From Candidatus Omnitrophota bacterium (GTDB lineage: Bacteria; Omnitrophota; Gorgyraeia; 2-01-FULL-45-10), in contig JAGVGJ010000039.1 in assembly GCA_020057115.1 (NCBI GenBank), forward strand, positions 52,806-116,805: 64,000 nt of DNA, written 5' to 3'. Under the pieces are notes generated by a model. The model did not search any database and was not told the origin of the DNA. It was given only the letters and a program-made list of their open reading frames with translations. Positions 1,777 through 52,354 of this stretch are shown in pieces (the stretch's first letter is position 1; every line of letters starts with the position of its first letter). A program made the position numbers and the translations under genes.

Positions 1777-2236
1777 GTTTCACGCGATGCTCGGGCGAAC
1801 CCAGCGGTTCGCCCAACGAGTAAGCCGACATCTCCATGCGGCTCGCTTATGGGTAAGGCTGGATTGGATCACGCTCTATATGGGAAACTGGTGGGTGATC
1901 CAATAAAGTATTAAGGTGTCGCTTCGCGACCTAGATAGGGAAGAAACAAGAACAAACCCTGAGCCCAATTTAGCACATTGAAAATGTTAGGCCTTTTAGA
2001 AGTAGAAAAATGGTTATATATAACAATTTTTTGATATTAAAAGGACCGAGGATGTTTGAGGCCTCCTCCGGAGGCCGAGTTCCGCAAGCCGCTGCTGTAT
2101 TCACCAGGCGGCAGCCCCCGAAGGGGGCTGGTCCCCATTTTTCTACTGAACAAAAGGCCGGCCCTTTAGTTTAACTAGAGGGGCAACATTTTCAGTGATA
2201 AATTGGGTTCAGGGTTTGGAAGCTACATGAGAGAGA
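1777..2236 (+). other. Highly structured 460-nt non-coding spacer inside the hyp operon, a candidate ncRNA or MITE-like insertion
   Basis: No ORF. Many GC-rich hairpins (gggcgaacc/ggttcgccc; attggatcac/gtgatccaat; ggcctcc/ggaggcc; gccccc/gggggc; ggccggcc). An 18-bp inverted repeat with one mismatch, aaccctgagcccaattta (1955-1972) and taaattgggttcagggtt (2199-2216), encloses 226 bp. Confidence 0.3.
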
Positions 2237-3355
2237 ATGATGAAGTATATCGATGAGTTCAGGGACAAGCATCTGATCGTGAAGATCGCTAAGCGCATAC
2301 GCGAAGCGGTCGATCCGAGCCGCACTTATAATTTCATGGAAGTATGCGGCACGCACACTATGAGCATATTCCGCTTCGGCCTGCGGGACCTGTTGCTTAA
2401 GAATATAAGGCTTATTTCAGGCCCGGGATGCCCGGTCTGCGTCACGCCGAACGAATATATCGATAAAGCGATCGCAGCCGCAGAGCTTCCAAATGTCATC
2501 ATAGCCACATTCGGGGATCTCTTCAGGGTCCCGGGATCATATTCAAGTCTTGAAAAAGAAAAAGCCGCAGGCAGAGACATCAGGATGGTCTATTCAAGCA
2601 CCGATGCGATCGAACTCGCCAAGAAGCATCCCGATAAGGAGGTTGTTTTCCTGGGCATAGGGTTCGAGACCACGATACCTACGGTAGCCATGTCGATATT
2701 GATGGCGAAGAAGGAGAAGTTGAATAACTACTCGGTCCTCTCCGGCCATAAGACGATGCCGGAAGTATTAAGAGCGCTCGTCACAGACAGGTCCGTAAAG
2801 GTGGATGGTTTTATCCTTCCGGGGCATGTGAGCGCTATAATAGGCGTAAAGCCTTATCAGTTCCTGGCCAAGACCTACAAAAAGAGGTGCGTCATAACCG
2901 GTTTTGAACCGCTGGATATCTTGCAGGGGATATTGATGCTCGTTTCGCAGAAGAAGCCTAAGGTGGATGTTCAATATACGAGGATAATAGAGGCTTCCGG
3001 CAACAGGCGCGCCGAAGCGAGTATTGAGAAGGTCTTCCAGAAGACGATATCTAATTGGCGCGGGATCGGAGAAGTAAGAAATAGCGGTCTAAAGATACGG
3101 AAAGCTTTTTCCGCCTTCGATGCGGAAGATAAATTCAACATAAGGCCAAGGCCTTCAAGAGAACATGCCGGATGTGTATGTGGGGAAGTGCTTAAGGGCG
3201 TAAAAACGCCGCTTGAGTGCAGATTATTCTCCAAGGTCTGCAACCCTGAGCATCCTGTCGGTGCATGTATGGTAGCTACCGAAGGGACGTGCGCGGCATA
3301 TTATAAATACAGGGGCCAGGGGCCAGGGGCCAGGGGCCAGGAAAAAACATGGTGA
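2237..3355 (+). CDS. hypD: Hydrogenase maturation factor HypD
   Basis: 372 aa with the conserved CGTH, GPGCPVC and CAAYY motifs. The C-terminal ~14 aa (RGQGPGARGQEKTW) are encoded by the G-repeat. Confidence 0.9.
   Translation: MMKYIDEFRDKHLIVKIAKRIREAVDPSRTYNFMEVCGTHTMSIFRFGLRDLLLKNIRLISGPGCPVCVTPNEYIDKAIAAAELPNVIIATFGDLFRVPGSYSSLEKEKAAGRDIRMVYSSTDAIELAKKHPDKEVVFLGIGFETTIPTVAMSILMAKKEKLNNYSVLSGHKTMPEVLRALVTDRSVKVDGFILPGHVSAIIGVKPYQFLAKTYKKRCVITGFEPLDILQGILMLVSQKKPKVDVQYTRIIEASGNRRAEASIEKVFQKTISNWRGIGEVRNSGLKIRKAFSAFDAEDKFNIRPRPSREHAGCVCGEVLKGVKTPLECRLFSKVCNPEHPVGACMVATEGTCAAYYKYRGQGPGARGQEKTW
3312..3341 (+). repeat. Perfect G-quadruplex motif (GGGGCCA)x4 overlapping the hypD 3' end and the hypE Shine-Dalgarno
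   Basis: Sequence ggggccaggggccaggggccaggggccagg, with AGGA at 3339-3342 and 6 nt to the hypE ATG at 3349. Confidence 0.75.
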
Positions 3356-4353
3356 GAAAAATACTTTTAAGTCATGGTTCCGGTGGGAGGATGATGCATG
3401 AACTTCTCGATAAGTTCATATTGAAAGAGCTTGATAACGAGATATTGAGGGAGAAGAAGGATTCGGCCATCCTGGCCCTCGGGAATAAGAAATTCGCATT
3501 TACCACAGACTCTTATGTGGTCGACCCGATAATATTCCCCGGAGGAGATATCGGAAGCCTTGCTGTGTGCGGCACAGTGAATGATCTTGCCGTTTGCGGC
3601 GCCCGTCCGTTATACCTGTCAGTCAGCGCTATTATCGAAGAAGGGCTCGAGATGGCGATATTGGAACGGGTCATAAGATCTGTAAGGGATGCGGCTAAGG
3701 CTGCCGGAGTAAAGGTCGTTACAGGCGACACTAAAGTCGTCAACAAAGGCTCTTGCGACAAGATATTCTTAAATGCGAGCGGTATCGGCGAGATATATTA
3801 CGGCGGGCTTTCAGCGGACAGGATAAAACGCGGAGATGTCATCATAGTTAACGGCCCAATAGGCGAACATGCCATAAGCGTCTTGTCAAAGCGCGAAGGC
3901 ATAGGCTTCAACACAACTGTCAAGAGCGATTCAGCGCCGTTAAACAAGCTTATCACCGGGATATTAGGCGCCTCTAAAAAAGTCAGGTTCATGCGCGACC
4001 CGACGCGCGGGGGCGTCGCAACCACATTGAATGAGATAGTAAAAGAGATGCCTTTCGGGATAATGCTCAATGAAAGCGATATACCCCTCAGCAATGGCGC
4101 AAGAGGGGCGTGCGAATTGCTTGGGCTCGATCCTCTATACCTTGCGTCTGAAGGCAGGGTGCTTGTTGTCGTCGCCAAAGAGGATGCCGGGAAAGTCTTG
4201 CGCGCGATGAAGCGTGATAAACTGGGCAGGAAGGCCAAGGTAATAGGTTGCGCGGTCAAGGAACACGCGGGAAAGGTATTTCTCAATACAGTATCCGGCG
4301 GCAAGAGGATAGTTGACATGCTTTCAGGCGAGCAGCTTCCGAGGATATGCTAG
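3349..4353 (+). CDS. hypE: Hydrogenase maturation factor HypE (carbamoyl dehydratase)
   Basis: 334 aa, PurM-like, with the canonical C-terminal ...PRIC motif. Confidence 0.9.
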   Translation: MVRKILLSHGSGGRMMHELLDKFILKELDNEILREKKDSAILALGNKKFAFTTDSYVVDPIIFPGGDIGSLAVCGTVNDLAVCGARPLYLSVSAIIEEGLEMAILERVIRSVRDAAKAAGVKVVTGDTKVVNKGSCDKIFLNASGIGEIYYGGLSADRIKRGDVIIVNGPIGEHAISVLSKREGIGFNTTVKSDSAPLNKLITGILGASKKVRFMRDPTRGGVATTLNEIVKEMPFGIMLNESDIPLSNGARGACELLGLDPLYLASEGRVLVVVAKEDAGKVLRAMKRDKLGRKAKVIGCAVKEHAGKVFLNTVSGGKRIVDMLSGEQLPRIC

Positions 4354-4357: not shown

Positions 4358-5077
4358 ATGTATAAAGAACGCGCTTACAGGAGATGGGTAAAGTCAGACG
4401 GACTTGTATCATTTGAGGCCGTGGTGAAGGAGACGGATCTATTCGTATCGGCCGATAGCGATCTAAAGAAAGAAGCCGTCGCATCCATAATGCGTTATCG
4501 CGGGGAACTTGAAGATTATATTATGAAGCATGAGGATTTTTTGACATCTCTTGAGCCGGTAGAAGTTAAAGCCGATGCACCCGAGATAGCGAAAGTGATG
4601 GCTGCAGCCGCCAAGAAAGCCGGCGTAGGCCCGATGGCTGCCGTGGCAGGCGCTATGGCGGAATTTGTGGGAAGAGGCCTTCTCAAGTTATCCGGCGAGA
4701 TAGTGGTTGAAAATGGCGGGGATATATTCTTAAAAATAAATAAGAAGCGCTCCATGGGTATATTCGCGGGTGAGCGCTCGCCATTTACGGGAAAGCTTGC
4801 CATTGAGATCGAGCCTGATAAGGATGGAGTTGGGGTCTGCACTTCAAGCGGCACGGTGAGCCATTCTTTAAGTTTCGGGAATGCAGATGCGGCGCTTATC
4901 ATATCGGATAATGCCGCGCTTGCCGATGCGATGGCGACAGCTACAGGCAATCTCGTTAAGAGCGCATCCGACATAGAGAAAGGTGTCGCTTTCGCGAAGT
5001 CTGTAGAAGGCGTCAGGGGAGTGCTTATCATAGTAGGGGATAAATTAGGCAGTTGGGGTGATATAAAGTTAATATGA
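4358..5077 (+). CDS. UPF0280 / COG2122 (ApbE-like) family protein
   Basis: About 240 aa, Ala/Gly-rich (GPMAAVAGAMAE..., GVCTSSGTVSHSLSFGNADAA), resembling the archaeal UPF0280 family. The alternative upstream start at 4313 overlaps hypE. Confidence 0.45.
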   Translation: MYKERAYRRWVKSDGLVSFEAVVKETDLFVSADSDLKKEAVASIMRYRGELEDYIMKHEDFLTSLEPVEVKADAPEIAKVMAAAAKKAGVGPMAAVAGAMAEFVGRGLLKLSGEIVVENGGDIFLKINKKRSMGIFAGERSPFTGKLAIEIEPDKDGVGVCTSSGTVSHSLSFGNADAALIISDNAALADAMATATGNLVKSASDIEKGVAFAKSVEGVRGVLIIVGDKLGSWGDIKLI

Positions 5078-5089
5078 CAAGGAGGGGCC

Positions 5090-5497
5090 ATGGTATCAAA
5101 AAGGATAGTGTTAACATTTCCGCACAAGCTGCTCGACCAGCCGATAGCATATAAGCTGGTGAAGGACCACAACCTGATGTTCAACATCCTTCAGGCGAAG
5201 ATAACCCCAAAGGAAGAGGGCATCATGGTCCTTGAGCTTTCCGGAAAGAAGGAAGATTATGCGCAGGGAATAAAGTACCTTACGGAACTCGGCATAAAGA
5301 TAAAGCCTTTAAGCAAGGATGTCTCAAGAAATGACGTAAAGTGCACGCATTGCGGGGCATGCATCACTATATGCCCGACAGGCGCTTTATACATGGACAG
5401 GGACACGATGAAGGTCATATTTGACGATGAAAAATGCATAGCCTGCGAGCTTTGCGTAAAGGCCTGTCCCCCGAGGGCAATGGTGGTAAAGTTCTAA
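5090..5497 (+). CDS. NIL-domain protein fused to a 2x[4Fe-4S] ferredoxin
   Basis: An N-terminal ~75-aa NIL-like domain followed by CTHCGACITICP and CIACELCVKACP cluster motifs. A good SD (aggagg) lies 8 nt upstream. Confidence 0.75.
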   Translation: MVSKRIVLTFPHKLLDQPIAYKLVKDHNLMFNILQAKITPKEEGIMVLELSGKKEDYAQGIKYLTELGIKIKPLSKDVSRNDVKCTHCGACITICPTGALYMDRDTMKVIFDDEKCIACELCVKACPPRAMVVKF

Positions 5498-5498: not shown

Positions 5499-5527
5499 TT
5501 GACTTGGCGTATTTCAGGGCATAAAAT
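5499..5527 (+). promoter_or_regulatory. Sigma70-like promoter for the asrA-like / hydrogenase-1 operon
   Basis: ttgact (5499-5504), a 17-nt spacer, then taaaat (5522-5527). Confidence 0.4.
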
Positions 5528-5553: not shown

Positions 5554-6603
5554 ATGGAAAAAACATTTTACACGATAACAAAAAAAGACCTTTTTGACCT
5601 CTTCTCTAGGTTGTCAAAAGAGTACAGGATATTCGTCCCTTACAAGAAGGGCGAAGGCCTGTACTTCGGCGAATTCAACGCCGAGAAGGAAGACGAGATA
5701 GAGCTGGGCGCGATAAGACAGGCTCAGCCGTTCAAGTCTTTTATATCCGTTTCCCGCGAGAATGTCCTGGAGCCCGCAGAGAAGCGTTCCGGCCCTGTCA
5801 TAGTGGCCGGGGTGAAAAGCTGCGACCTCCAGAGCATGGTCCTGCAGGACCATGTATTCCTCGAAGGGGATTTTAAGGATCCTTTCTACGCAAAAAAGAG
5901 AGAAGATACGATCATAATATCCCATGACTGCACCACTGCCAAAGAGACGTGTTTCTGCATGGCGATGGCGGGCATGCCATTCCCCCAAAAAGATTTTGAC
6001 ATGAACCTCTCCCCGGTCGACGGGCACATACTGGTTGAGATCGGAAGCGAAAAGGGCAGGGCGATGGTGGGCGGTTATAAGACCTTCTTTAAGAGCGCCG
6101 ACTCCCGCGATATGAAAGCCAGGGATGAGCTGCGCGCTAAAGTCTCCGAAGAGGTCTCAGGTTTTATAAGTAAGCGTGGCACCCCGAAGACGACCGAACT
6201 GTGGGGGGTGGTAAAAAAGAATTACGACAACATCCCGTTCTGGCAGGATTTTTCTTCGACGTGCGTCGAATGCGGCGCATGCAATCTCGGATGCCCGACC
6301 TGCCACTGCTTTCTTCTTTATGACTCAAAAGGAAAGGACATCCCCAGGAGGATGAAGGCCTGGGATTCGTGTCTTTATAACACTTTTGCAAGGGTGGCCG
6401 GTGACCATAACCCGAGAAAACACCTTTATGAAAGGCTGCGCAACAGAATAGACAAAAAGCTCGACTACTTTCCGCATGTCATGAATTATTTCGCCTGCAC
6501 GGGGTGCGGGCGCTGTATAGAGGCGTGTCCCGGCGATATCGATATCAGAGAGATAATGAAAGGGCTTATGAAGGGCGCCTGGAACAAGCCGCCGAATGAT
6601 TAA
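5554..6603 (+). CDS. AsrA / sulfhydrogenase-beta (HydB)-like Fe-S subunit
   Basis: 349 aa with Cys motifs CFCMAMAG, CVECGACNLGCPTCHC and CTGCGRCIEACP, matching the anaerobic sulfite reductase subunit A / sulfhydrogenase beta architecture. Confidence 0.7.
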   Translation: MEKTFYTITKKDLFDLFSRLSKEYRIFVPYKKGEGLYFGEFNAEKEDEIELGAIRQAQPFKSFISVSRENVLEPAEKRSGPVIVAGVKSCDLQSMVLQDHVFLEGDFKDPFYAKKREDTIIISHDCTTAKETCFCMAMAGMPFPQKDFDMNLSPVDGHILVEIGSEKGRAMVGGYKTFFKSADSRDMKARDELRAKVSEEVSGFISKRGTPKTTELWGVVKKNYDNIPFWQDFSSTCVECGACNLGCPTCHCFLLYDSKGKDIPRRMKAWDSCLYNTFARVAGDHNPRKHLYERLRNRIDKKLDYFPHVMNYFACTGCGRCIEACPGDIDIREIMKGLMKGAWNKPPND

Positions 6604-7423
6604 TATGAAAAATCCGTATAGCTATATTGAGGCCGAGATACTGGACGTCATCGAAGAGTCCCCGACCATCAAGACCTTCAGGCTTAAGCCTAAGGCAGAC
6701 ATAGGTTTCAGGGCGGGCCAGTTCATGGATGTCACCATCCCCGGGGTTGGAGAGGCGCCGTTCACGCCTTCCTCGAACCATGACGTCAAGGAGTATCTGG
6801 ATTTCACCATCATGAAGGCAGGCCGCGTCACGAATCTTCTTCACGGGATGAAAAAGGGAGAGGTCGTGGGCCTGAGGGGGCCTTACGGCAAGGGATATCC
6901 TCTGGACATATTTAAAGGCAAGGATATATTTATCGTAGGAGGCGGCGTAGGGCTTGCGCCATTGAGGGCTCTGTTATACGCACTTTTCAACGAGGTCGAT
7001 GATTACAACAAGATAATACTTAAATACGGTTCAAGGTCCCCGAAGGACATAATATATAAAAGCGAGATAGATACCTGGAGAGACAGGGGCAAGAATGTGA
7101 GCCTTGAGGTCTCGTGTGATACCGGAGACGATACATGGAAAGGCAACGTCGGTCTTGTGACCACGATATTGAAAGACCTTGATATAAATATGGCTAATGC
7201 CGTATCGATAGTATGCGGCCCGCCGATAATGATGAAGTTCGTCACGTTCAAGATCCTGGACCTCGGGTTCAAAGACACGCAAGTCTATCTCTCGATGGAG
7301 AAGAACATGTCGTGCGGCATCGGCAAGTGCGGCCACTGCAGGATAGGGCCGTATTACGCATGTAAGGACGGGCCGGTATTCACTTACGACAAGATCAAGG
7401 ATCTGCCGAATATATGGGATTAA
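6596..7423 (+). CDS. AsrB / sulfhydrogenase-gamma (HydG)-like FAD/NAD(P)H-binding [2Fe-2S] oxidoreductase (PyrK family)
   Basis: 275 aa with a ferredoxin-NADP reductase-like fold (RAGQFMDV, GGGVGLAPL) and C-terminal CGIGKCGHCRIG...C [2Fe-2S] motif. Confidence 0.8.
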   Translation: MINMKNPYSYIEAEILDVIEESPTIKTFRLKPKADIGFRAGQFMDVTIPGVGEAPFTPSSNHDVKEYLDFTIMKAGRVTNLLHGMKKGEVVGLRGPYGKGYPLDIFKGKDIFIVGGGVGLAPLRALLYALFNEVDDYNKIILKYGSRSPKDIIYKSEIDTWRDRGKNVSLEVSCDTGDDTWKGNVGLVTTILKDLDINMANAVSIVCGPPIMMKFVTFKILDLGFKDTQVYLSMEKNMSCGIGKCGHCRIGPYYACKDGPVFTYDKIKDLPNIWD

Positions 7424-7427
7424 TAGA

Positions 7428-7458
7428 GGGACAAGGGGCCAGGGTCAAGGGTCCCAGG
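7428..7458 (+). repeat. G-tract repeat (4 G3-4 tracts) filling the asrB-like / hycB-like intergenic spacer and carrying the SD AGGTGA
   Basis: Sequence gggacaaggggccagggtcaagggtcccaggtg. Confidence 0.7.
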
Positions 7459-7464
7459 TGAAAT

Positions 7465-7968
7465 ATGAAAAGGCTATTCATAGATCTGGACATATGCGAT
7501 CAATGCGACGAATGTGTCTCGTCATGCTCTTATGTCCAGCATCCGAAGAATGAAGGCATCACATCCTTAAGGGAGCTGGCGCATTTCGTCGTAGTCTGCC
7601 GCAGGTGCGATGATGCCCCGTGTGTGGCCTCATGCCCGTGGGAAGCGCTCGAGATGCAGGACTATAATGCGCTCAAGAGATACATGATGAGGTGCACCTC
7701 ATGCAAGTCATGTTCGAGGGCATGCCCGTTCGGGGTCATATATCCGGAGACGATACCTTTCATCATAGCAAGGTGCGATTTCTGTCTCGGAAGGCTCAAA
7801 GAGGGCGAGACGCCGGCCTGTCTCCAGGCATGCACGCATAATGGCGTCAAGTACGGCGAGTTCGAAGAAAATAAGGACGAACATATCTACCAGGTATCGG
7901 AATATCTGGTTGTGAAGACAAATTACAAATGGGAGAGGATCCTCCAGGCTCCTCCGAAGAAGAAATGA
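7465..7968 (+). CDS. HycB/NrfC-like multi-[4Fe-4S] electron-transfer subunit
   Basis: 167 aa with four Cys clusters: CDQCDECVSSC, CRRCDDAPCVASCP, CTSCKSCSRACP and CDFC...C. Confidence 0.7.
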   Translation: MKRLFIDLDICDQCDECVSSCSYVQHPKNEGITSLRELAHFVVVCRRCDDAPCVASCPWEALEMQDYNALKRYMMRCTSCKSCSRACPFGVIYPETIPFIIARCDFCLGRLKEGETPACLQACTHNGVKYGEFEENKDEHIYQVSEYLVVKTNYKWERILQAPPKKK

Positions 7969-8903
7969 ACATTTTTGGATACTTAGGGCTACTCTTGATA
8001 TTCCCGGGCTTTTTGTTCACGGCCTTCATGGGGCTCATGGTGGGCTGGGTGGACAGGAAGGTCACGGCCAGGATACAGTACAGGGTCGGCCCTCCGTGGT
8101 ACCAGAATTTCTTCGATATTGCGAAGCTATTCTTCATAAAGGAGACGCTGATACCGGCGGGCGTGTCTAGGGCGCTGTTCCTCGGGATGCCGGCCTTGGG
8201 CCTTGCAGGGGCTACTCTGGTCTCCACGATGGTGCTCGTTATAAACGCATCCCCGAAGACGGGTTTTATAGGGGACCTTATCGTAATAGCGTACCTTTTG
8301 CTCATACCGCCTATCGCGGTGATGCTCGGCGGGTTCGTCTCCGAGAACAGCCTCGCGTCGCTCGGCGCGTCGAGGGAGATGAAGCTCATGATGTCATATG
8401 AGCTTCCGTTCATCCTTGCCATGACCGTGCCGATAATAAAGTGCGGCTACTCGATAAAGCTGGGGGAGATGATATCGGCGCAATATGTCAATGGCCCGGT
8501 ATTTGCGAGCGCATCCGGGGTGATCGCTTTCTTCGTCATGATGCTGTGCATCCAGGCGAAGCTCGGATTTGTACCGTTCGATATGCCCGAGGCCGAGACC
8601 GAGATAATGGCAGGCCCGTATATCGAATATTCAGGCAAGGCCCTCGGGATATTCAAGCTGCAGAAGGCGATGCTCGGGTTCATCATCCCCGTATTCATGA
8701 TAACTTTGTTCTTCGGCGGGATAAAGGATGACTTCTCCGGTTTTATGAAGAACATAGCCGAGTTCGCAGGGATACTGGTAATAATGATAGTCATAAAGAA
8801 CACCAACCCCCGCGTCAGGATAGACCAGGCGATGGGATTCTTCTGGAAACCTGTCACCGCCGCGGCGGTAATAGCGGTGGCGTTGGCGTATTTCGGGAAA
8901 TAG
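7965..8903 (+). CDS. NuoH/HycD/MbhM-like membrane subunit of group-4 hydrogenase complex 1
   Basis: The ORF from 7929 overlaps the upstream gene, so the likely start is MNIFGYLGL at 7965. Polytopic, with NuoH-like conserved residues (RKVTARIQYRVGP). Confidence 0.85.
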   Translation: MNIFGYLGLLLIFPGFLFTAFMGLMVGWVDRKVTARIQYRVGPPWYQNFFDIAKLFFIKETLIPAGVSRALFLGMPALGLAGATLVSTMVLVINASPKTGFIGDLIVIAYLLLIPPIAVMLGGFVSENSLASLGASREMKLMMSYELPFILAMTVPIIKCGYSIKLGEMISAQYVNGPVFASASGVIAFFVMMLCIQAKLGFVPFDMPEAETEIMAGPYIEYSGKALGIFKLQKAMLGFIIPVFMITLFFGGIKDDFSGFMKNIAEFAGILVIMIVIKNTNPRVRIDQAMGFFWKPVTAAAVIAVALAYFGK

Positions 8904-8905
8904 AT

Positions 8906-9340
8906 ATGGGATTAAAAGAAAAGATACTCGCGCGCTCGATATATGTCTTCCATGTCTCAAGCGGCAGCTGCAATAATTGCGATATCGAGATACTGGATTG
9001 CCTGACGCCGAGGTTCGACCTGGAGAGATTCGGCGTGGTACTGGTGGGAAGCGTCAAGCATGCCGATGCCATGTTATGCACCGGATCGGTCAACCGTCTC
9101 ACCGTGCCGCGTATAAAAAAATTATACGAGCAGATGCCCAAGCCAGGTTTTGTGATAGCATGGGGCGCGTGCGGCTCATCGCGCGGGCTCTTCAAGGACA
9201 GCTACAATACCGGTGCGCCGCTCGACGAGATAATCCCGGTCGATGCCTATATCCCGGGATGCCCGCCTAAGCCGGAGGCCGTAATAGGCGCGCTCGTCAA
9301 GCTTAAAGAGAAGATATTGAACAAGAAAGCCGTAAAATGA
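8906..9340 (+). CDS. Group-4 [NiFe]-hydrogenase small subunit (NuoB/MbhJ/EchC-like)
   Basis: 144 aa with the proximal [4Fe-4S] ligand motifs CNNCDIE, GSVKHAD...C and GCPP. Confidence 0.9.
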   Translation: MGLKEKILARSIYVFHVSSGSCNNCDIEILDCLTPRFDLERFGVVLVGSVKHADAMLCTGSVNRLTVPRIKKLYEQMPKPGFVIAWGACGSSRGLFKDSYNTGAPLDEIIPVDAYIPGCPPKPEAVIGALVKLKEKILNKKAVK

Positions 9341-9825
9341 CGCTGGACGATATACTCGCAAGCCTTGATAAAAGGTTTAAAGATAGCATCCAGAAGATAG
9401 AGAAGACATCGCCGAAGAAGGCATTCGTGGATATGGACGCGGCGAAGATAACGCAATTCGTTATCCATATCTTCAAGGACCTGGGATTGAGGCCGAATAC
9501 CATAAGCGCTGTCGATACTTTTGGCGGCTTTGAGCTGCTTTACCATTTTTCATATGACCGTTCTGGCGTTACGCTGTCATTAAGAGCTTTATTAAAAGAC
9601 AGGACGGAGCCGACGATAGATACGATCACCGGCATTACCAGATCAGCCTGGTGGATAGAAAGAGAGATACATGAGCTCTTCGGTATAAATTTCAGGGATA
9701 ACAAGGACTTGAGGACTCTGCTATTGCCTGACGACTGGCCGAAGGGCGTATATCCTTTAAGAAAAGATTTTATACCTCCGAAGAGAGATTCGCGGGGCCA
9801 TACCCATAAACCGGGAGCAGCATGA
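9337..9825 (+). CDS. NuoC/MbhK/EchD-like subunit
   Basis: 162 aa, NuoC-like, with a conserved C-terminal segment (ERE.HELFGI, PDDWPKG.YPLRKD). Confidence 0.85.
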   Translation: MTLDDILASLDKRFKDSIQKIEKTSPKKAFVDMDAAKITQFVIHIFKDLGLRPNTISAVDTFGGFELLYHFSYDRSGVTLSLRALLKDRTEPTIDTITGITRSAWWIEREIHELFGINFRDNKDLRTLLLPDDWPKGVYPLRKDFIPPKRDSRGHTHKPGAA

Positions 9826-11009
9826 GCCATAAAGCTACTATACCAATAGGTCCATATCATCCTCTGCAGGAAGAGCCTGAGTTTTATAAGCTGGTGGTAG
9901 AAGGCGAGCGGGTGGTGGATGTTGACGTCAGAATAGGATATAACCACCGCGGCATCGAGAAGATATCCGAGGGAAAGAGCTTCGACCAGGCGATATTTGC
10001 CGTAGAGCGCATATGCGGCATATGTTCTGGCAGCCACCCGATAGCGTGCGTGCAGGCCATAGAAGAGATCGCAAAGGTCGAGATCCCCGAGAGGGCTTTA
10101 TTTATCCGCTCCATCATACAGGAACTCGAGAGGCTCCATTCACACATGTTATGGCTGGGCCTTGCCGGGCACTTCCTGGGATATAACACCATATTTATGT
10201 GGGGATGGAAATACAGGGAGCCGATATGCGATATCATGGAGACTGTCACAGGCAACAGGCAGAACTATGGCATCATGAAGGTGGGCGGCGTAAGGCGCGA
10301 CATAGAGAAGGAACATGTCCCGTATATATTATCAAGGCTCGACGAATTCACTAAACAGCTCGATATGCTGAAAGGCGCCATACTCGACGATCCGGTGCTT
10401 CACGCGCGGCTTAAAGGCGTCGGGATCCTGACAAAAGAGAAGGCCATCGATTATGCAGCCCTTGGCCCGACCGCCAGGGCCTCCGGCGTAGATATAGACG
10501 CAAGGCGCGACTATCCTTATGCGGCATACCCAAGGGTCAAGTGGAATGTCATTACCCAGAAAGAGGGCGACGTATTCGCAAAGACGGTGGTGAGGATACT
10601 TGAGATGTATGAATCGGTCAATATCATAAGGCAGTGCCTGGATAAAATGCCGCAAGGGCCGATCGACGCGAAGGTAAAGGATGTTCCGCCGGGTGAAGGA
10701 ATAGGCCAGATAGAGGCTCCGCGCGGCGAATGTTTCCATTATATAAAATCGGACGGCACGAATTCTCCCATGAGGCACAAAATAAGGGCCCCGACCTTCA
10801 TGAATTTTGCCACGTTCCGCGAAACTGTCATAGGCGAGACGGTCTCCGACGCTACGATAATACTGGCCGCGATCGATCCGTGCTATTGCTGCACCGAGAG
10901 GATGGTAGTAGTCAACTCCAAAGATAGAGAGCTGTATAAAGGACCGGACCTGATAAAGCTGTCGCAGGAAAAGACAAGGCTCATAAAAGAGAAGATGCAG
11001 AGGCTATAA
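9822..11009 (+). CDS. Group-4 [NiFe]-hydrogenase large subunit-like (NuoD/MbhL/EchE-like), possibly Mbx/MBS-type
   Basis: 395 aa with N-terminal L1 motif RICGICSGSH and C-terminal L2 motif DPCYCCTER (an extra Cys where Ech/HycE have Ser). A 32-aa C-terminal extension follows the Arg, the expected substrate of the HycI-like protease. Confidence 0.85.
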   Translation: MSHKATIPIGPYHPLQEEPEFYKLVVEGERVVDVDVRIGYNHRGIEKISEGKSFDQAIFAVERICGICSGSHPIACVQAIEEIAKVEIPERALFIRSIIQELERLHSHMLWLGLAGHFLGYNTIFMWGWKYREPICDIMETVTGNRQNYGIMKVGGVRRDIEKEHVPYILSRLDEFTKQLDMLKGAILDDPVLHARLKGVGILTKEKAIDYAALGPTARASGVDIDARRDYPYAAYPRVKWNVITQKEGDVFAKTVVRILEMYESVNIIRQCLDKMPQGPIDAKVKDVPPGEGIGQIEAPRGECFHYIKSDGTNSPMRHKIRAPTFMNFATFRETVIGETVSDATIILAAIDPCYCCTERMVVVNSKDRELYKGPDLIKLSQEKTRLIKEKMQRL

Positions 11010-11011
11010 GG

Positions 11012-12823
11012 ATGTACGCGAATATATTAGCGAATATGGTTCTTTTGCCGATATCGGCCGGGCTTGCCATGTTCATCATCCCGGAGCGGTACGGCAGGCT
11101 GGCTAAATTTTTAAGCTTTATCATAGCGCTCGGCCTTTTCGCCGCATCGATATATGTCTTTAATGTTAAGCCGGCATTCTGGCCGGGAGTGGATAAGCCG
11201 ATATTTATGGCAGATACTCTCTCGTCATTTATAGGGCTCGGGATAGCCTTCTTCGCGCTTGTCACTTTGACATATTCATTCGCTTTCATAGATAAAGATA
11301 TCGTGAAGTATAACAGTTATGTCCTCATCACCCTCGGCAGTTCTTTAGGAGCTTGCTACAGCGCGAACTTCCTGGGGCTTCTGATATTCTGGGGGGTCCT
11401 CGCGCTTGCCCTGTATCTACTGGTAAATATGTCCGGGACATCCGGAGCGGCAAAGGCGTCCGAGAAGGCGCTTGTGATAATAGGCGGCACCGACGCCCTC
11501 ATGTTGTTCGGCGTAGGCATACTCTGGGCCGCGACAGGCTCGTTCTCAATGGATAAGACGCACCTGCCGCTGGACAGCGCGCTATCCATAATAGCGTATC
11601 TTTCCATAGCGAGCGCTTCCCTGGCAAAGGCCGGTGCGATGCCGTTCCACTCGTGGCTGCCCGACGTGGCTGAAGAGGCCAAAGTGCCGGTCACAGCGTA
11701 TCTTCCGGCATCGCTCGACAAACTTCTGGGGATATATCTCCTCGCCAGGATATCGCTCGATATCTTCGCGATGAACAGCATATCTAACACCATACTCCTT
11801 GTCATCGGATCGGTAACCCTCATATTCGCCGTGACGCTCGCGCTCGTCCAGCATGACATGAAGAGGCTCCTCGGATATCATGCCGTATCTCAGGTTGGTT
11901 ATATGATCATCGGCATCGGCACGGCAAGCCCCATAGGGATAGCCGGAGCGCTGTTCCACATGCTCAATAACGCGATCTATAAATCATGCCTCTTCCTTAC
12001 GAGCGGCGCGGTAGAGCAGAAGACCGGCTCGACCGACATGTCGAAACTCGGCGGGCTTTCGAAATATATGCCCGTGACCTTCGCCGCGTGCCTTGTGTCA
12101 TCGCTTGCCATATCGGGCATTCCGCCGTTCAACGGGTTCGTCTCAAAATGGATGATATATCAGGGCATCATAGAATCGGCCAAGAGTTCCGGCCCGCTCT
12201 GGGTAATATGGCTGGTCGCGGCGATGTACGGGAGCGCGCTGACGATAGCAAGCTTCATGAAACTCCTGCATTCGGTATTTCTGGGTCGCCCTGCGAGGAA
12301 TTTCGGGGACGTGAAAGATGTCGGGCTTCTTATGGCAGTCCCCATGGCGATACTTGCGCTTCTTTCGATAATATTCGGGATATTTGCGTTCACCATACCG
12401 CTGAAGCTTTTCATAATACCGGCTGCCGGCAGCGCGGTATTTTATATAGGGACATGGAGCCCGGGCGCGGCTACCATGATGCTTGTAGCCGGCCTTATCA
12501 TAGGCCTCGGGATATACGCGTTCATGAAGTCCAAGTCATTCCGCACGACTACCACTTTCATAGGGGGCGAGGAGCCGTCGTCGATGGACAGGGTCTCCGG
12601 CACGGAATTCTATGACACGTTGAAGGATATGAAATGGCTCGGCAGGATATATAAGAAGGAAGATTCCGGCTCTTTTGATATATATGTCCAGACGAAGAAC
12701 CTTATATCGGTATTCACCGGTGTCCTCCAGCGCCTTCACAACGGAGTGCTGCCGACTTATATAGTATGGTGCCTTCTCGGGATGATCGGTTTGTTCATCG
12801 TCCTGTTCATGGGTAAGATATGA
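11012..12823 (+). CDS. MrpA/MrpD/NuoL-like antiporter subunit (MbhH-like)
   Basis: 603 aa, polytopic, with conserved WLPDV..A and HAVSQ.GYM motifs. Confidence 0.85.
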   Translation: MYANILANMVLLPISAGLAMFIIPERYGRLAKFLSFIIALGLFAASIYVFNVKPAFWPGVDKPIFMADTLSSFIGLGIAFFALVTLTYSFAFIDKDIVKYNSYVLITLGSSLGACYSANFLGLLIFWGVLALALYLLVNMSGTSGAAKASEKALVIIGGTDALMLFGVGILWAATGSFSMDKTHLPLDSALSIIAYLSIASASLAKAGAMPFHSWLPDVAEEAKVPVTAYLPASLDKLLGIYLLARISLDIFAMNSISNTILLVIGSVTLIFAVTLALVQHDMKRLLGYHAVSQVGYMIIGIGTASPIGIAGALFHMLNNAIYKSCLFLTSGAVEQKTGSTDMSKLGGLSKYMPVTFAACLVSSLAISGIPPFNGFVSKWMIYQGIIESAKSSGPLWVIWLVAAMYGSALTIASFMKLLHSVFLGRPARNFGDVKDVGLLMAVPMAILALLSIIFGIFAFTIPLKLFIIPAAGSAVFYIGTWSPGAATMMLVAGLIIGLGIYAFMKSKSFRTTTTFIGGEEPSSMDRVSGTEFYDTLKDMKWLGRIYKKEDSGSFDIYVQTKNLISVFTGVLQRLHNGVLPTYIVWCLLGMIGLFIVLFMGKI

Positions 12824-13341
12824 TAGAGATACATCTTCTTCTGCTTTTTATGATCGCCGCGGCCGTGATAGCCGTAGAGGCGAAAGACCTTTTGTCGAGC
12901 GTCATAGCGGTCGGCGCTGTCGGGATAGGCCTCTCGCTGTCATTTCTGGTACTGAAAGCGCCTGACCTCGCAATAATGCAGCTTGTGGTCGAGATATTGA
13001 GCCTCATCATACTCATCAGGGGCACGATACGGAGGGACCTTCCGTTCTCTGCTTCAGGAAGATGGTATTTTAATACGATAACCACGGTATGTTTTGTGAT
13101 AGTCTTCATAGGCCTTGCGCTCCTGACATTTAGGAGCCTGCCGGATCTGGGCAATGCCACGATGAGGGTATCGAAAGCCTATATCGCGGAAGGGATGCTT
13201 AGGACAGGCGCCAAGAACATAGTCGCAGCCATAACCCTTAATTACAGGGCATACGACACCCTGGGCGAGGCGACTATGATATTCGCCGCCGTAATAGGCG
13301 TCCTTGTGATAGCAAGGAAGACAGGCAAAAAGGAAAAATAA
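12820..13341 (+). CDS. MnhB/MrpB-domain membrane subunit (MbhD/E-like)
   Basis: 173 aa hydrophobic protein within the Mrp module. Confidence 0.55.
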   Translation: MIEIHLLLLFMIAAAVIAVEAKDLLSSVIAVGAVGIGLSLSFLVLKAPDLAIMQLVVEILSLIILIRGTIRRDLPFSASGRWYFNTITTVCFVIVFIGLALLTFRSLPDLGNATMRVSKAYIAEGMLRTGAKNIVAAITLNYRAYDTLGEATMIFAAVIGVLVIARKTGKKEK

Positions 13342-13342
13342 T

Positions 13343-13804
13343 ATGGCCGATATAGCCAGAGAGCATGGGATGACGGTGATAGTGAAGACGGTGACGCGTC
13401 TTACGCTGGCATTCATCCTTCTCTACGGCATATACATAGCCCTGAACGGCCACATATCTCCGGGGGGCGGGTTCGTGGGCGGTGTCATAGTCGCGCTTTC
13501 ATTCGTCCATGTGATGCTCGCCTTCGGCAAAGAGGCCGCGCTGAAGAGGCTCCATTCCAAGGGCTTGAGGCTCGCCGTGAATATCGGCGCGCTCATGTTC
13601 CTCTACATAGTCATGATGCGTTTCGCCTGGAAATTCCCGGCCGGAAGGTTCATCATAGAGAAGATGAGGCCTCACGAGATATTCGCGAATGAGATAATAT
13701 TACCTCTTTGCGAATTAGCGATAGTCGGGGCGGGATTATTCACCGTATTTATCGCGCTGGTGCTGCTCTGTAAGTATGAAGAAAAAATAGAGAAGGAGAA
13801 GTAG
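13343..13804 (+). CDS. MnhB/MrpB-family subunit (MbhF-like)
   Basis: The HISPGGGFVGG signature of the MnhB family. Confidence 0.7.
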   Translation: MADIAREHGMTVIVKTVTRLTLAFILLYGIYIALNGHISPGGGFVGGVIVALSFVHVMLAFGKEAALKRLHSKGLRLAVNIGALMFLYIVMMRFAWKFPAGRFIIEKMRPHEIFANEIILPLCELAIVGAGLFTVFIALVLLCKYEEKIEKEK

Positions 13805-13808
13805 GCCT

Positions 13809-14147
13809 GTGACAGCGTATATATTATGCCTTGTATTATTCTCGATAGGCCTTTACTGCGCCCTAAGGAAGAGGAACGTGGTCAAGATAATAATCGGGAT
13901 CGGCATCATGGAATATGCGGCGAATTTCCTATTCGTCTTGATAGGATACCGCTCCGGCGGCCGCTCGCCGATATATGCCAATGACCAGGTTATAAAGAGC
14001 ATGGTAGATCCGCTTCCGCAGGCCGTGGTGGCAGTAGCGATCGTGCTCAACCTGTCCGTGACGCTACTACTGGTCGCGATAGCGATAAAGCTTTATGAAA
14101 AGTACGGGACATTTGACATAACCAAGATAAATGACTTGAAGGGGTAA
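13809..14147 (+). CDS. MrpC/NuoK-like subunit (MbhG-like)
   Basis: 112 aa with three TM helices, NuoK-like. Confidence 0.7.
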   Translation: MTAYILCLVLFSIGLYCALRKRNVVKIIIGIGIMEYAANFLFVLIGYRSGGRSPIYANDQVIKSMVDPLPQAVVAVAIVLNLSVTLLLVAIAIKLYEKYGTFDITKINDLKG

Positions 14148-14156
14148 TAAAACAAC

Positions 14157-15653
14157 ATGGCTTTCATCCCATTCTTCATAGCGATACCTTTAGGAGCGGC
14201 ATTCTTGATCTCGCTTGCGGGAAAGAGGTTCAGGGCGTCTTCCGGCCCAATCGCGTGCGCGGCATCGCTCTTCCTCCTTGCGGCATCCCTCGCAATTGTG
14301 AAGCCGGTCCTGGCCCACAAGACGCTTGTATACAGGGTGGGGAACTGGCTTCCGCCGTTCGGCATACCCATGATAGTAGACAGCCTGACGGCGCTCATGC
14401 TCGTACTTGCCGGTATCGTCGTATTTTTTGTCACCATTTATTCTATAGGATATATGAAGCCATATACGGACAAGTGGAAGTATTATACCCTCCTCATGCT
14501 TCTGGTGGGAGGGTCTAACGGCGTTCTTCTGGCCGGCGACATATTTAATATGTTCGTCTTTCTCGAGATAGCGTCCATATCCGTATACGCGCTTGTCGCC
14601 TATGGTACCGAAAAACATTCTCTGGAAGGGGCATTCAAATATGCAGTAATGAGCTCCATAGGCTCGGTCTTCATATTTCTGGGTATAGCCATCCTCTATA
14701 GCTACACATCCACGCTTAACATGGCAGACATGGCCGCTGTCCTTATGCAGAAGGGGCCGGGAATGATAGTGCCTTTTGTCACGACCCTCTTCCTGGTCGG
14801 CTTCGGCCTCAAGGCGGGCCTCATGCCTTTCCACGCGTGGCTTCCGGACGCGTATTCCGCGGCTCCGGCGACGGTTCCGGCATTATCATCCGGAGTCCTG
14901 ATCAAGGTATTGGGGTTATACGCGATATCAAGGATCGTCTTCAACGTGTTCGGCATAAATGCCGAGGTCTCCAATATCCTCGTGATATTAGGTTCTCTGT
15001 CCATGGTAGGCGGAAGCATCCTCGCTTTCGGGCAGACGAAGATGAAGCGGCTCCTTGGGTATTCGAGCATCAGCCAGGTCGGATATATAGCTATCGGCCT
15101 GGGCGTCGGGACGCCGCTCGCGCTCTTCGGGAGCATATTCTATCTTTTGAACCACAGCCTTTCAAAGGCCCTCTTATTCTTAAGCGCCGGAGCGATCGAA
15201 CATTCGACGGGCACCGATGAGCTTGGATCTATAAGGGGAACCTGCAGGAGATCTCCGCTGGCCGGATGGGCCAGCCTTGTGGGCGCGCTATCCATAAGCG
15301 GCATACCGCCTCTCGGAGGATTCTGGGCGAAGCTCATTATAATATTCGCGTGCATACAGGCCGGAAGGCCGATGCTCGCATTCCTCATGGTGCTGGCAAG
15401 CATATTTACGCTCATCTATTATTTTAAAGCGTTTACCGGCGTCCTGTTCGGCTCTGAGTCAGAAAAGTCCAGGCCGTTCGAAAAGGCACTGTCGCCCCAT
15501 ATGGCCCTTGCGCTATTCTGCCTTACCGCTCTTGTGGTTGCCGCGGGGCTTGTGCTCCTTCCGGGGAAATGGCAGGCGCTTATTAACGGCGCGGTGGGCG
15601 TTCTTTCAGGCGGAAGGGATTACGCGATCATACTATTTGGAGCCATGAGATGA
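14157..15653 (+). CDS. Second MrpD/NuoN-like antiporter subunit of complex 1 (H'-like paralogue)
   Basis: 498 aa with FHAWLPDAYSAAPA and the SISQVGYI motif. Confidence 0.85.
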   Translation: MAFIPFFIAIPLGAAFLISLAGKRFRASSGPIACAASLFLLAASLAIVKPVLAHKTLVYRVGNWLPPFGIPMIVDSLTALMLVLAGIVVFFVTIYSIGYMKPYTDKWKYYTLLMLLVGGSNGVLLAGDIFNMFVFLEIASISVYALVAYGTEKHSLEGAFKYAVMSSIGSVFIFLGIAILYSYTSTLNMADMAAVLMQKGPGMIVPFVTTLFLVGFGLKAGLMPFHAWLPDAYSAAPATVPALSSGVLIKVLGLYAISRIVFNVFGINAEVSNILVILGSLSMVGGSILAFGQTKMKRLLGYSSISQVGYIAIGLGVGTPLALFGSIFYLLNHSLSKALLFLSAGAIEHSTGTDELGSIRGTCRRSPLAGWASLVGALSISGIPPLGGFWAKLIIIFACIQAGRPMLAFLMVLASIFTLIYYFKAFTGVLFGSESEKSRPFEKALSPHMALALFCLTALVVAAGLVLLPGKWQALINGAVGVLSGGRDYAIILFGAMR

Positions 15654-16150
15654 TGAAGAAGGCATTCCTGTTCATGCTTTGGTATCTGGTCTGGTGCCTT
15701 CTCGCATGGCCGCCAAGCATGCAGCACATGATAATAGGTATATTCGTAGCCTCGTTCGTGTCATTGATGACGAACGACATGTTCTCCGGAAAGCCGCTGG
15801 ATACCAGGTTGAATCCCGCCAGATATATGTGGTTCCTTTATTATGTAGCAGTGTTCGCATGGGAATGTTTCAAAGCGAATATAGACGTGGCGTACAGAGT
15901 GTTGCACCCGGACCTTCCGATAAAGCCCGGGACGATAAGGGTGAAGACAAGCCTTAAATCCGACGCCGGCCTCACTTTCCTGGCAAATTCGGTTACGCTT
16001 ACCCCGGGGACCACGAGCGTCGATATCGACAGGGATAAAGGTCTTATATATATTCACATGCTTTATATCAGCGACAGTTATGACAAGGATTCCATGAAGC
16101 TCAAAGTCGTAGACAAGTTCGAGAAGATATTGAGGAGGATATTCGAATGA
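15650..16150 (+). CDS. MrpE-like subunit (MbhA-like)
   Basis: 166 aa. The size, position in the Mrp module and hydrophobic N-terminus fit MnhE. Confidence 0.55.
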   Translation: MMKKAFLFMLWYLVWCLLAWPPSMQHMIIGIFVASFVSLMTNDMFSGKPLDTRLNPARYMWFLYYVAVFAWECFKANIDVAYRVLHPDLPIKPGTIRVKTSLKSDAGLTFLANSVTLTPGTTSVDIDRDKGLIYIHMLYISDSYDKDSMKLKVVDKFEKILRRIFE

Positions 16151-16512
16151 TCCCCGGAAGGGTCCGCTGGTTCATAGGCCTCGTGGCGTCATTTGCGGTC
16201 CTGGCGCTGATATTATTCCTGCCGCTTCCGTCGATGTTAAAGTGGCAGTCGGGCTTCCTGGGCCGCGCGTTCCTGTGGCTTCTGGTATGCGCCATACTTT
16301 GTCTGGCAAGGGTGGTGAGGGGGCCGACCGCGCCGGACAGGTCGGTCGCCATAGACATGCTCGGGATATTGATAGTCGGTTTCTGCGCCATCTTAAGCCT
16401 TTCTACGGGAAGAGATTGGTACATAGATATAGGGATAGCGTGGGCGCTGCAGAGCTTTATCGGCGTTATGGCTCTTGCCAAATACCTGGAAGGAAGGGAC
16501 TTCGATGAATGA
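16147..16512 (+). CDS. MrpF-like subunit (MbhB-like)
   Basis: 121 aa with three TM helices, positioned between the MrpE-like and MrpG-like genes. Confidence 0.55.
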   Translation: MIPGRVRWFIGLVASFAVLALILFLPLPSMLKWQSGFLGRAFLWLLVCAILCLARVVRGPTAPDRSVAIDMLGILIVGFCAILSLSTGRDWYIDIGIAWALQSFIGVMALAKYLEGRDFDE

Positions 16513-16840
16513 GAAGATAGGGATGGTGGTCATAGTGCTAGGGCTTGCATTCGACTTCTTCGGGTGCGTAGGCCTCATAAGGTTCCCGGATGTATATAAC
16601 AGGCTGCAAGCTTCGGCTAAGTGCGTGACCCTCGGGACATGCGGCATTCTCCTGGGGCTGTTCCTGTTCAAAGGTTTCAGCGGTGCCGGTATAAAGGCGT
16701 TATTGTGCATGGTATTCATATTGTTGACCGCTCCCGTCTCAGCCCACGCCCTCGCGCGGGCGGCATACCGCTCAGGGGTGAAGCCCTGGGGCGGTACGGT
16801 TGTGGATCATTACGGCGAAGACCTTGAAAATATAAAGTAG
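16505..16840 (+). CDS. MrpG-like subunit (MbhC-like)
   Basis: The MnhG signature RFPDVYNRLQASAK. The likely start is MNEKIG at 16505 (the ORF is listed from 16475). Confidence 0.75.
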   Translation: MNEKIGMVVIVLGLAFDFFGCVGLIRFPDVYNRLQASAKCVTLGTCGILLGLFLFKGFSGAGIKALLCMVFILLTAPVSAHALARAAYRSGVKPWGGTVVDHYGEDLENIK

Positions 16841-16848: not shown

Positions 16849-17457
16849 ATGAATATAAATGATATCAGGACGAAGACCATGATAATGGCCGATAAGGCCT
16901 ATGAGATGCTCGGCCTTGTCGAAAAAGGTTTTATGGAGAACAAGTCTGAGCCGCTGTCCCAGGCCATGAGGGTCGAAGACGATATAAATGACCTGGAAAA
17001 GTCCCTCACGAGGAACATCCTTGACATATCGATGGCGTCTACCAGCGAGAAGGACAGAAGAGAGCTTGCCACGCTCCAGCAGACGGTGGAGATGCTGGAA
17101 AGGATGGGCGATGAAGCGGCAAGCCTCATCGAGCGCATAGAGATAAAGGTGGCGGAGAAACTGCTCTTCAGCGACTCCGGGGTCGTCCAGTATAACGAGA
17201 CTTACCACGCGATGAAGCGTTCGGTAGAGATGATGCGCGAATTCCTCGCGAAGAATGATAAAGTCTTAAGGGAGAAGGTGATCGAGAACGGCTTCCACGT
17301 AAAGGAACTGGTGGAGCGATACCGCAAAGAACATACAGACAGGCTCCTGAAAGGGCTCTGTACGCCCATGGGCGCGAACATGTATTTCGACATGCTAGAT
17401 TTTACCGGCAACCTGGCGAGGCATTCCTCGACGATCACCAAATTTTTCGATTGCTAA
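16849..17457 (+). CDS. PhoU-like / DUF47 family protein
   Basis: 202 aa helical protein with PhoU-like repeats (D.INDLE....M.ER.GDEA), embedded in the hydrogenase operon. Confidence 0.55.
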   Translation: MNINDIRTKTMIMADKAYEMLGLVEKGFMENKSEPLSQAMRVEDDINDLEKSLTRNILDISMASTSEKDRRELATLQQTVEMLERMGDEAASLIERIEIKVAEKLLFSDSGVVQYNETYHAMKRSVEMMREFLAKNDKVLREKVIENGFHVKELVERYRKEHTDRLLKGLCTPMGANMYFDMLDFTGNLARHSSTITKFFDC

Positions 17458-17458
17458 A

Positions 17459-18079: not shown

Positions 18080-18080
18080 G

Positions 18081-24900: not shown

Positions 24901-25060
24901 TCAAATGAGACCACAACTTATGGAGCGATAGCGACATAAGTTGTTCGCGTCGCTTGCCGGCTGGGTCGAATTTGATCCCGCAAGATACCTTTAAATATTC
25001 GTAGTCTACGATAAATCTATCTTGCGGGAAAAATAATTCAGGTTAGCGTTTCAAAGAACA

Positions 25061-41530: not shown

Positions 41531-41663
41531 AGTGCCCTCCCTTTTTAATATAAATGACATAGATAAAGGCGTTTGTCAACGATTTATTGTAGCAGCATAA
41601 ACCTGATATTTGAATAATTTACATTATTAAAGGTTAAGGAAAAAAAAGGAAGATAAATTTTTA

Positions 41664-50847: not shown

Positions 50848-50863
50848 AGAGATATTTACCACG

Positions 50864-50911
50864 CTGTCATTGCGAGGAGCGAACGAAGTGAGCGACGAAG
50901 CAATCTATCAA
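50864..50911 (+). repeat. Bipartite repeat copy A, upstream boundary of the hydrogenase-2 operon
   Basis: Conserved flanks ctgtcattgcgagg ... gaagcaatctatcaa around a variable core (gagcgaacgaagtgagcgac). Copy B is at 60739-60778. Confidence 0.6.
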
Positions 50912-50916
50912 CTATC

Positions 50917-52353: not shown

Positions 52354-52354
52354 G

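Follow-up and report, generated by a model that had tools for sequence, protein, structure and literature searches.

Why should two genes known from a sulfide-dependent route to homocysteine stand at the end of a set of hydrogenase-maturation genes, apart from the gene of the enzyme with which they usually work? The question is raised by positions 4358 to 5497 of a stretch of 64,000 nucleotides (nt) from a Candidatus Omnitrophota bacterium (assembly GCA_020057115.1, contig JAGVGJ010000039.1), hereafter the window, in which a gene for a UPF0280/COG2122 protein is followed by a gene for a ferredoxin with an NIL domain (NIL-ferredoxin), the pair being wedged between hypE and a hydrogenase operon. 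The best reading of the sequence data is that the two proteins would be orthologues of both accessory components of the DUF39 homocysteine route, and we consider it probable, if by no means certain, that this pathway is split between distant genomic places and has no mechanistic tie to the hydrogenase. Coordinates without a label refer to the window, and labels such as L001 or L026 denote the genome and metagenome loci with which it was compared.

In Desulfovibrio vulgaris Miyazaki, proteins of the DUF39, NIL/ferredoxin and COG2122 families are each required for homocysteine synthesis, and their genes (DvMF_1464, DvMF_0262 and DvMF_0044) lie in three separate places of the genome (PMC5764234). 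In Methanosarcina acetivorans, the COG1900 protein MA1821 and the NIL-ferredoxin MA1822 make up L-ASST (L-aspartate-semialdehyde sulfurtransferase), whose reaction needs two electrons and sulfide, and the COG2122 protein MA1715 is described as a sulfur-trafficking protein needed for the efficient use of sulfide by this enzyme; the NIL domain has been reported to bind or sense methionine (PMC12068725). The genetic evidence for a part of UPF0280/COG2122 in sulfide-dependent homocysteine synthesis comes from DvMF_0044 and MA1715 only (PMC5764234, PMC12068725). The DUF39/COG1900 protein (PF01837) is called HcyBio below.

Identity of the two proteins

The first gene of the pair (4358-5077, on the plus strand like the whole first 18.6 kb of the window, a single co-directional gene string) encodes a protein of 239 amino acids (aa) with a trimmed ApbE-like fold. 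The product scores 300.6 bits over residues 2-239 on NCBIfam NF003323 (PRK04334/UPF0280), for which the cutoff is 271, and matches the Protein Data Bank (PDB) entry 2o34 (DVU1097 of Desulfovibrio vulgaris, Pfam DUF375) with an E-value of 2.8e-40. For an identical protein in the database, as for database relatives, an assignment to PF27030 (AbpE_bact) is precomputed, and JGI names this protein 'ApbE superfamily uncharacterized protein (UPF0280 family)'; the Pfam-A copy used here has no UPF0280 model, and hmmscan returned zero families for this product. The longest open reading frame (ORF) opens at a TTG at 4313, and the ATG at 4358 is taken as the true start because the homologues are 239 aa long and begin with MYKER. 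All of the named closest relatives are labelled Candidatus Omnitrophota.

An AlphaFold2 model of the protein, built from 34 homologues, reached a predicted local distance difference test score (pLDDT) of 89 and a predicted template modelling (TM) score of 0.88, a single-sequence AlphaFold model (pLDDT 37) having been discarded. Foldseek aligns it with 2o34 at TM scores of 0.84-0.88 (E 1e-22), and the next structural matches, ApbE, Ftp and FmnB, follow at 0.45-0.63 with 12-16% identity. The family motifs GVGPMAAVAG, ENGGD, CTSSGTxxHSxSxGxAD and LADAxATAxGN are present, and all 18 invariant and 25 near-invariant columns found among 51 representatives (clusters at 50% identity) are kept. Cys161, within GVCTSSG, is the sole cysteine of the protein and is present in 81 of 83 homologues; just past it, the near-invariant TVSHSLS loop (residues 166-172, window 4853-4873) is the sole internal stretch with a pLDDT below 50. 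In terms of the model this is probably a mobile active-site loop, and Cys161 together with the flexible SSGTxxHSxS loop is a candidate for the functional site of UPF0280.

The second gene (5090-5497, plus strand), preceded by a strong AAGGAGG ribosome-binding site, encodes a 135-aa ferredoxin in which an NIL domain (PF09383, residues 4-71, E 3.3e-16) is followed by matches to Fer4 families. Its eight cysteines form two CxxCxxCxxxCP motifs (Cys 85/88/91/95 and 116/119/122/126), the two [4Fe-4S] motifs, and the protein is 54-65% identical to the NIL-ferredoxins encoded behind HcyBio in Dehalococcoidia and other phyla. Judged by homology matches of this strength, chance ORFs are ruled out for both genes. 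The original prediction, made from the DNA letters alone, had named the same two families and placed the pair between hypE and the hydrogenase operon, and all of this has held. As proteins the two are thoroughly typical of their known families, and the unusual feature is the conserved position of their genes at the end of a hypD-hypE unit, apart from HcyBio.

The usual setting of the pathway genes

A profile scan for UPF0280 was made with one genome per species, and the best 80 genome loci were taken. In about half of these bacterial loci UPF0280 is the last gene of a contiguous HcyBio-NIL-ferredoxin-UPF0280 operon, the hosts being Dehalococcoidia, Clostridia, Elusimicrobia, Planctomycetes, Atribacterota and some Omnitrophota; DET0921-DET0919 of Dehalococcoides is a published example (PMC5764234). 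In many Desulfobacterota the UPF0280 gene is solitary. The genetic link of such pairs to sulfide incorporation, which had been proposed for methanogens, agrees with the work on M. acetivorans (PMC12068725), and it is the restriction to methanogens that falls.

Within the Omnitrophota several arrangements coexist. HcyBio proteins labelled as Omnitrophota are common and share 80-85% identity with one another. The full trio stands behind genes for Rrf2, a Thi4-like protein and CysK in L031, L087/L088 and L170/L171, and a lone HcyBio gene, in an Rrf2-(Thi4)-CysK setting with neither NIL-ferredoxin nor UPF0280 within 10 kb, is observed in L084, L085/L086, L172-L175 and L182, and likewise in L176-L179, which carry no taxon label. 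Pairs without hyp genes also occur in the phylum, in L058 and in L044, where the pair adjoins a CysE-like gene.

Some of the lone HcyBio genes have a hydrogenase in their vicinity: together with CysK and Rrf2 they stand 5-9 kb from a hydrogenase cluster of the window type in L085 and L176. In L085 (7403-21212) the order CysK-HcyBio-IscS-NifU-Trx-MnmA-Rex runs straight into AsrA, and in L176-L179 the lone HcyBio gene lies about 9 kb from the MnhG-ferredoxin-HycI end of an Mrp-type hydrogenase (L176 8507-21221).

Conservation of the place behind hypE

In the window the pair is preceded by a truncated hypF (453-1547) that encodes the Kae1-like C-terminal half only (PF17788 and PF22521 only), hypC (1564-1776; N-terminus MCLAIP, PF01455 on homologues), hypD (2237-3355; 66% identity to the L001 gene with PF01924) and hypE (3349-4353; TIGR02124 at 443 bits, C-terminal PRIC), all on the plus strand. 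The end of hypD overlaps the start of hypE, and hypC and hypD are 460 nt apart. Gaps of 4 nt between hypE and UPF0280 and 12 nt between UPF0280 and the NIL-ferredoxin gene follow, and then a spacer of 56 nt before AsrA.

This order, from the truncated hypF through hypC, hypD, hypE, UPF0280, NIL-ferredoxin, AsrA, AsrB, ferredoxin and the NuoH-, NuoB-, NuoC- and NuoD-like genes to the Mrp-type genes, recurs in Omnitrophota metagenome-assembled genomes (MAGs; L001-L005 and L020, 63-67% UPF0280 identity), in deeper lineages with about 50% identity (L032, L060), in 15 of 80 metagenome contigs retrieved by the AsrA-like subunit, and in L169 and L180. There are at least 25 hyp-linked loci, and clustering by UPF0280 identity gives 18 groups at 70% and 8 at 60%. 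Conservation of the pair beside hyp and hydrogenase genes in relatives, which the original prediction had left to be checked, is thereby confirmed. Across loci the median gaps are 28 nt (hypE-UPF0280) and 18 nt (UPF0280-NIL-ferredoxin), and most are short.

To which transcription unit does the pair belong? Of 40 hydrogenase operons of the window type for which 2.5 kb or more can be seen upstream, 11 have hyp genes and the pair, one (L091) has hyp genes only and 28 have neither; 11 of the 12 adjacent hyp operons thus carry the pair directly behind hypE. Where upstream sequence is visible, the pair is never seen ahead of AsrA without a preceding hypE, and it is therefore best regarded as part of the hyp unit and not of the structural operon. 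The spacer between the NIL-ferredoxin gene and AsrA ranges from 1 to 3545 nt and holds a Rex gene in L060 and L112. In the window it contains a sigma-70-like promoter match, TTGACT-17-TAAAAT (5499-5527, plus strand, 10 of 12 positions), which is suggestive only, since promoter-like matches over the region are not above chance counts; a separate hydrogenase promoter behind the pair, backed by the variable spacers and the Rex genes of L060 and L112, is likewise suggestive. The exceptional L091 (Ga0082335_1000012, 725,798 nt; locus 6452-11050), where the truncated hypF, hypC, hypD and hypE lead directly into AsrA, is a close relative of the window (84% identity for NuoD, 67% for HypD) and represents a natural 'deletion' variant.

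The hyp-linked copies also retain the sequence constraints of their HcyBio-linked counterparts. Conservation of at least 90% among 36 HcyBio-linked copies is reached by 27 NIL-ferredoxin columns, and 8 hyp-linked copies keep every one of them; of 74 such UPF0280 columns they keep 66, the exceptions being scattered substitutions in some of the 8. Neighbour-joining intersperses the hyp-linked UPF0280 proteins of Omnitrophota with copies of the phylum from other contexts (the trio of L031, the pair alone of L058), with no separate paralogue clade, and no second UPF0280 locus of any hyp-linked assembly appeared among the 80 best genome matches. Nothing in the retained columns, the interspersed tree or the single loci thus points to neofunctionalisation or to a second, 'housekeeping' copy.

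A probable split homocysteine pathway

How, then, would the pair work? In the DUF39 route aspartate semialdehyde, sulfide and two electrons are converted to homocysteine, the NIL-ferredoxin acting as the electron-delivering subunit of L-ASST and the UPF0280/COG2122 protein as a helper that makes the use of sulfide efficient. In the Omnitrophota lineage the pair would have become separated from the catalytic HcyBio, whose gene would lie elsewhere in the genome beside Rrf2 and CysK, and the pair, in inverted order, would form the last part of the hypD-hypE transcript, just upstream of a group-4 hydrogenase operon with a promoter of its own. We infer an HcyBio gene in the window's genome and a pair that continues to serve it; the linkage to hyp would bring co-expression only, with no shared biochemical task.

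A split pathway is the simplest account: a lone HcyBio gene requires partners from another place in the genome, and a pair lacking HcyBio likewise has to find its catalytic subunit in another place. Dispersal does not preclude function, since the homocysteine genes of D. vulgaris Miyazaki lie apart and are all required. The existence of pairs without hyp (L058, L044) and of hyp without the pair (L091) argues against a coupling of the pair to the hydrogenase. Of the two roles suggested in the original prediction, sulfide assimilation is favoured, whereas sulfur-trafficking support for the hydrogenase has found no positive evidence.

Several observations weigh against the split pathway. HcyBio is not encoded in the window, as the original prediction had noted: a six-frame search with a hidden Markov model of 38 HcyBio proteins reached an E-value of 4.3 at best, and PF01837 is absent among the Pfam-scanned ORFs of the window, which include all those of HcyBio-like size. 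It is also absent within 10 kb on either side of every hyp-linked locus, and a comparison of the accession blocks of UPF0280 and HcyBio proteins found no single assembly with both HcyBio and a hyp-linked pair; the look-ups fell in sister assemblies of the same projects (JAQUQN and JAQUBB; JAFGET and JAFGFD). The adjacency of hypE, UPF0280 and NIL-ferredoxin across lineages of about 50% identity, mostly with short gaps, is conserved more strongly than is usual for hitchhiking genes. Further contacts with hyp genes are seen in an unclassified bacterium, whose UPF0280 gene overlaps the beginning of a hypF-C-D-E set with full-length hypF (L026, 8853-14222), in an Omnitrophota locus where UPF0280 directly adjoins a hypE that is the sole hyp gene over the 9 kb upstream (L055, 8969-10723), and in a Dehalococcoidales MAG where an HcyBio trio adjoins a convergent hyp operon (L033, 8377-16482).

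If the split pathway is real, methionine synthesis in many Omnitrophota rests on a three-gene pathway with scattered parts, and reconstruction tools that seek the HcyBio-NIL-ferredoxin-UPF0280 operon would wrongly call these organisms auxotrophs. The locus would also be a clear case of two biosynthetic genes long carried on a hydrogenase-maturation transcript.

Alternative explanations

The alternative that survives best leaves the homocysteine function unchanged and makes the linkage adaptive, the hydrogenase supplying the pathway with low-potential electrons for the NIL-ferredoxin or with sulfide; in one variant the AsrAB-like module could make sulfide from sulfur or polysulfide. Parts of the pathway do lie near hydrogenases of the window type in independent arrangements (the pair with hyp upstream, L085, and L176-L179), L-ASST does demand electrons and sulfide, and the persistence of the adjacency over a long divergence leaves room for a functional link. 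Against this stand the 28 window-type operons with neither hyp nor the pair, and the promoter-like site, the spacers of widely varying length or the Rex gene that part the pair from AsrA; sulfur reduction by the AsrAB-like module is unsupported, its subunits scoring below the sulfhydrogenase cut-offs. We regard an adaptive linkage as unlikely, though worth keeping in mind.

A second alternative holds that the pair was recruited in Omnitrophota as accessory factors of [NiFe]-hydrogenase maturation. The ferredoxin could, for example, be the reductant for cyanation by HypCD/HypE and UPF0280 a sulfur or thiol carrier, perhaps in connection with the truncated HypF. The near-constant presence of the pair behind hypE in hyp operons beside this hydrogenase, the tight gaps, the contacts in L026 and L055 and the reduction of HypF to its Kae1-like half in all hyp-linked loci speak for such a role, which would bring new players into a well-studied machinery. 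The pair nevertheless retains the constraints of its DUF39-linked orthologues, pair and hyp occur without each other (L058 and L044; L091), and of about 70 UPF0280 loci outside Omnitrophota only 2 have hyp genes within 10 kb, close to a rough chance expectation of about 0.5-0.7. We know of no report of Hyp factors of the UPF0280 or NIL-ferredoxin kind. Recruitment to maturation seems improbable on this evidence, and it is still less probable that the two are genuine maturation factors of Omnitrophota, besides or instead of a homocysteine role, in a system whose HypF has the Kae1-like half only.

That UPF0280 is an ApbE-type flavin transferase which flavinylates a subunit of the neighbouring complex is extremely unlikely: ApbE, Ftp and FmnB do rank next after 2o34 in the structural comparison, but no Pfam match to ApbE (PF02424) is obtained at E <= 0.01, the UPF0280 family profile matches 2o34 alone in the PDB, the protein is some 70-90 residues shorter at the low identity given above, the flavinylation motif [ST]GA[ST] occurs in 0 of 22 operon proteins, and the homology between COG2122 and ApbE does not reach the flavin-binding region (PMC5764234). 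An identity as flavin transferase was accordingly rejected.

The neighbouring hydrogenase and the hyp region

The hydrogenase operon opens with genes for Fe-S and FAD/NAD(P) subunits that resemble AsrA and AsrB (sulfhydrogenase beta/gamma-like; 5554-7423), continues with those for a ferredoxin, for subunits similar to NuoH, NuoB and NuoC, and for the [NiFe] large subunit (7465-11009, the last at 9822-11009; CGIC and DPCYCC), and then encodes Mrp/Mbh-type antiporter-like membrane subunits (11012-16840), which in the syntenic L001 have Proton_antipo_M, MbhD/E, MnhB and Oxidored_q2 domains. Behind it, at 16849-18563, come genes for a protein with a PhoU domain, for a ferredoxin and for a HycI-like protease; the protease, a maturation endopeptidase of uncertain start at the end of the cluster (17973-18563), is 46% identical to the L176 gene with PF01750. 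All of these genes are on the plus strand. PabB-PabC follows the hydrogenase in L176-L179, as it does in the window, and in many relatives a Rex gene stands in front of the cluster.

The complex had been described as an AsrAB/Mbx-like one of the sulfur type. In Mbx the Ni-Fe ligand cysteines are lost. The large subunit of the window keeps the motifs RICGICSGSH and DPCYCC; the AsrA-like subunit scores 135.8 against a cutoff of 323 and the AsrB-like subunit 236 against 288.6, both also below the ShyB/C and HydB/G cut-offs, and no AsrC-like sirohaem protein was seen among the scanned ORFs of the window. The labels Mbx-like and sulfite reductase (AsrABC) were rejected on these grounds, and by its motifs the complex is a genuine group-4 membrane-bound [NiFe] hydrogenase. 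The combination of AsrA/AsrB-like with Mbh/Mrp-type subunits suggests an NAD(P)H-linked, ion-translocating enzyme. Mrp-linked group 4g hydrogenases have already been described in Omnitrophota (PMC8542988).

The truncated HypF (364 aa) is not peculiar to the window, as no acylphosphatase, Zn-finger or YrdC half was found within 10 kb in 17 hyp loci of the Omnitrophota type; full-length HypF is encoded in L026 and L033. The gap between hypC and hypD (1777-2236, plus strand) has a predicted RNA minimum free energy of -205 kcal/mol against -138 +- 5.7 for shuffled sequences (z = -11.9) and contains a long-range helix (1953-2013 with 2135-2218). Partial homologues lie in intergenic DNA by hyp operons in L001 (5894-6530, minus strand) and L099 (about 3900-3975), the homologous spacer of L001 being oppositely oriented, with z = -18.4. 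Only one copy of the conserved core, TTTTTCKACTGAACAAAAGRCCGRCCC, is present in the window. The gap has no Rfam match at E <= 1 and no phage match, and its core matches no viral contig; it could be a large non-coding RNA of a new kind or a non-autonomous mobile element. Near the pair no riboswitch or known RNA was found, the Rfam scan of the window yielding one transfer-messenger RNA (tmRNA) and four tRNAs.

Other features of the window

Behind an H+-pyrophosphatase gene lies another cluster for a group-4 hydrogenase (48523-60732, plus strand), with three Mrp antiporter-like subunits, a NuoH-like subunit and a large subunit (57704-58927, plus strand) carrying CGIC and CFSC motifs, so that the window holds two membrane-bound hydrogenases. 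Beyond it, at 61015-62654, a tRNA gene (61015-61088, plus strand) and the gene of a large serine recombinase with Resolvase, Recombinase and Zn-ribbon domains (61026-62654, minus strand) overlap, and an integrated element may have its boundary here. The tmRNA gene (Rfam, 172 bits) and the adjacent smpB, together at 24487-25516 on the minus strand, are ordinary. An ORF of 2197 aa lies at 41735-48328 (plus strand), and two ORFs without a Pfam match, of 373 aa (37443-38564, plus strand) and 337 aa (40547-41560, minus strand), stand near CsgG-, LPP20- and FecR-like genes.

Comparison with known systems

The UPF0280 protein of the window shares its family profile, fold and invariant motifs with DvMF_0044, with DVU1097 (2o34), to which it is about 36% identical, and more distantly with MA1715. 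Unlike these, it has a single cysteine, and its gene follows hypE and precedes that of the NIL-ferredoxin, with no HcyBio gene nearby. For a methanogen COG2122 protein a Cys-rich cluster at the C-terminus has been described (PMC9431491); the window protein, of the bacterial type and with one cysteine only, cannot possess such a cluster. ApbE and Ftp, the FMN transferases, have a related fold; the window protein is shorter, is not a member of their family at the sequence level and has no flavinylation target nearby.

The NIL-ferredoxin is built like MA1822 and DvMF_0262, with an NIL domain followed by two [4Fe-4S] motifs in about 135 aa. It differs from subunits of that type in its surroundings, being flanked by UPF0280 and a hydrogenase operon and not by the catalytic HcyBio. 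When the locus is set beside the HcyBio-NIL-ferredoxin-UPF0280 operon, known from DET0921-DET0919 and found in Omnitrophota in L031, L087 and L170, two of the three genes are recognized in the window, mutually adjacent as in that operon. The first gene is missing, the other two stand in inverted order, and their neighbours are hyp genes in place of those for Rrf2, the Thi4-like protein and CysK.

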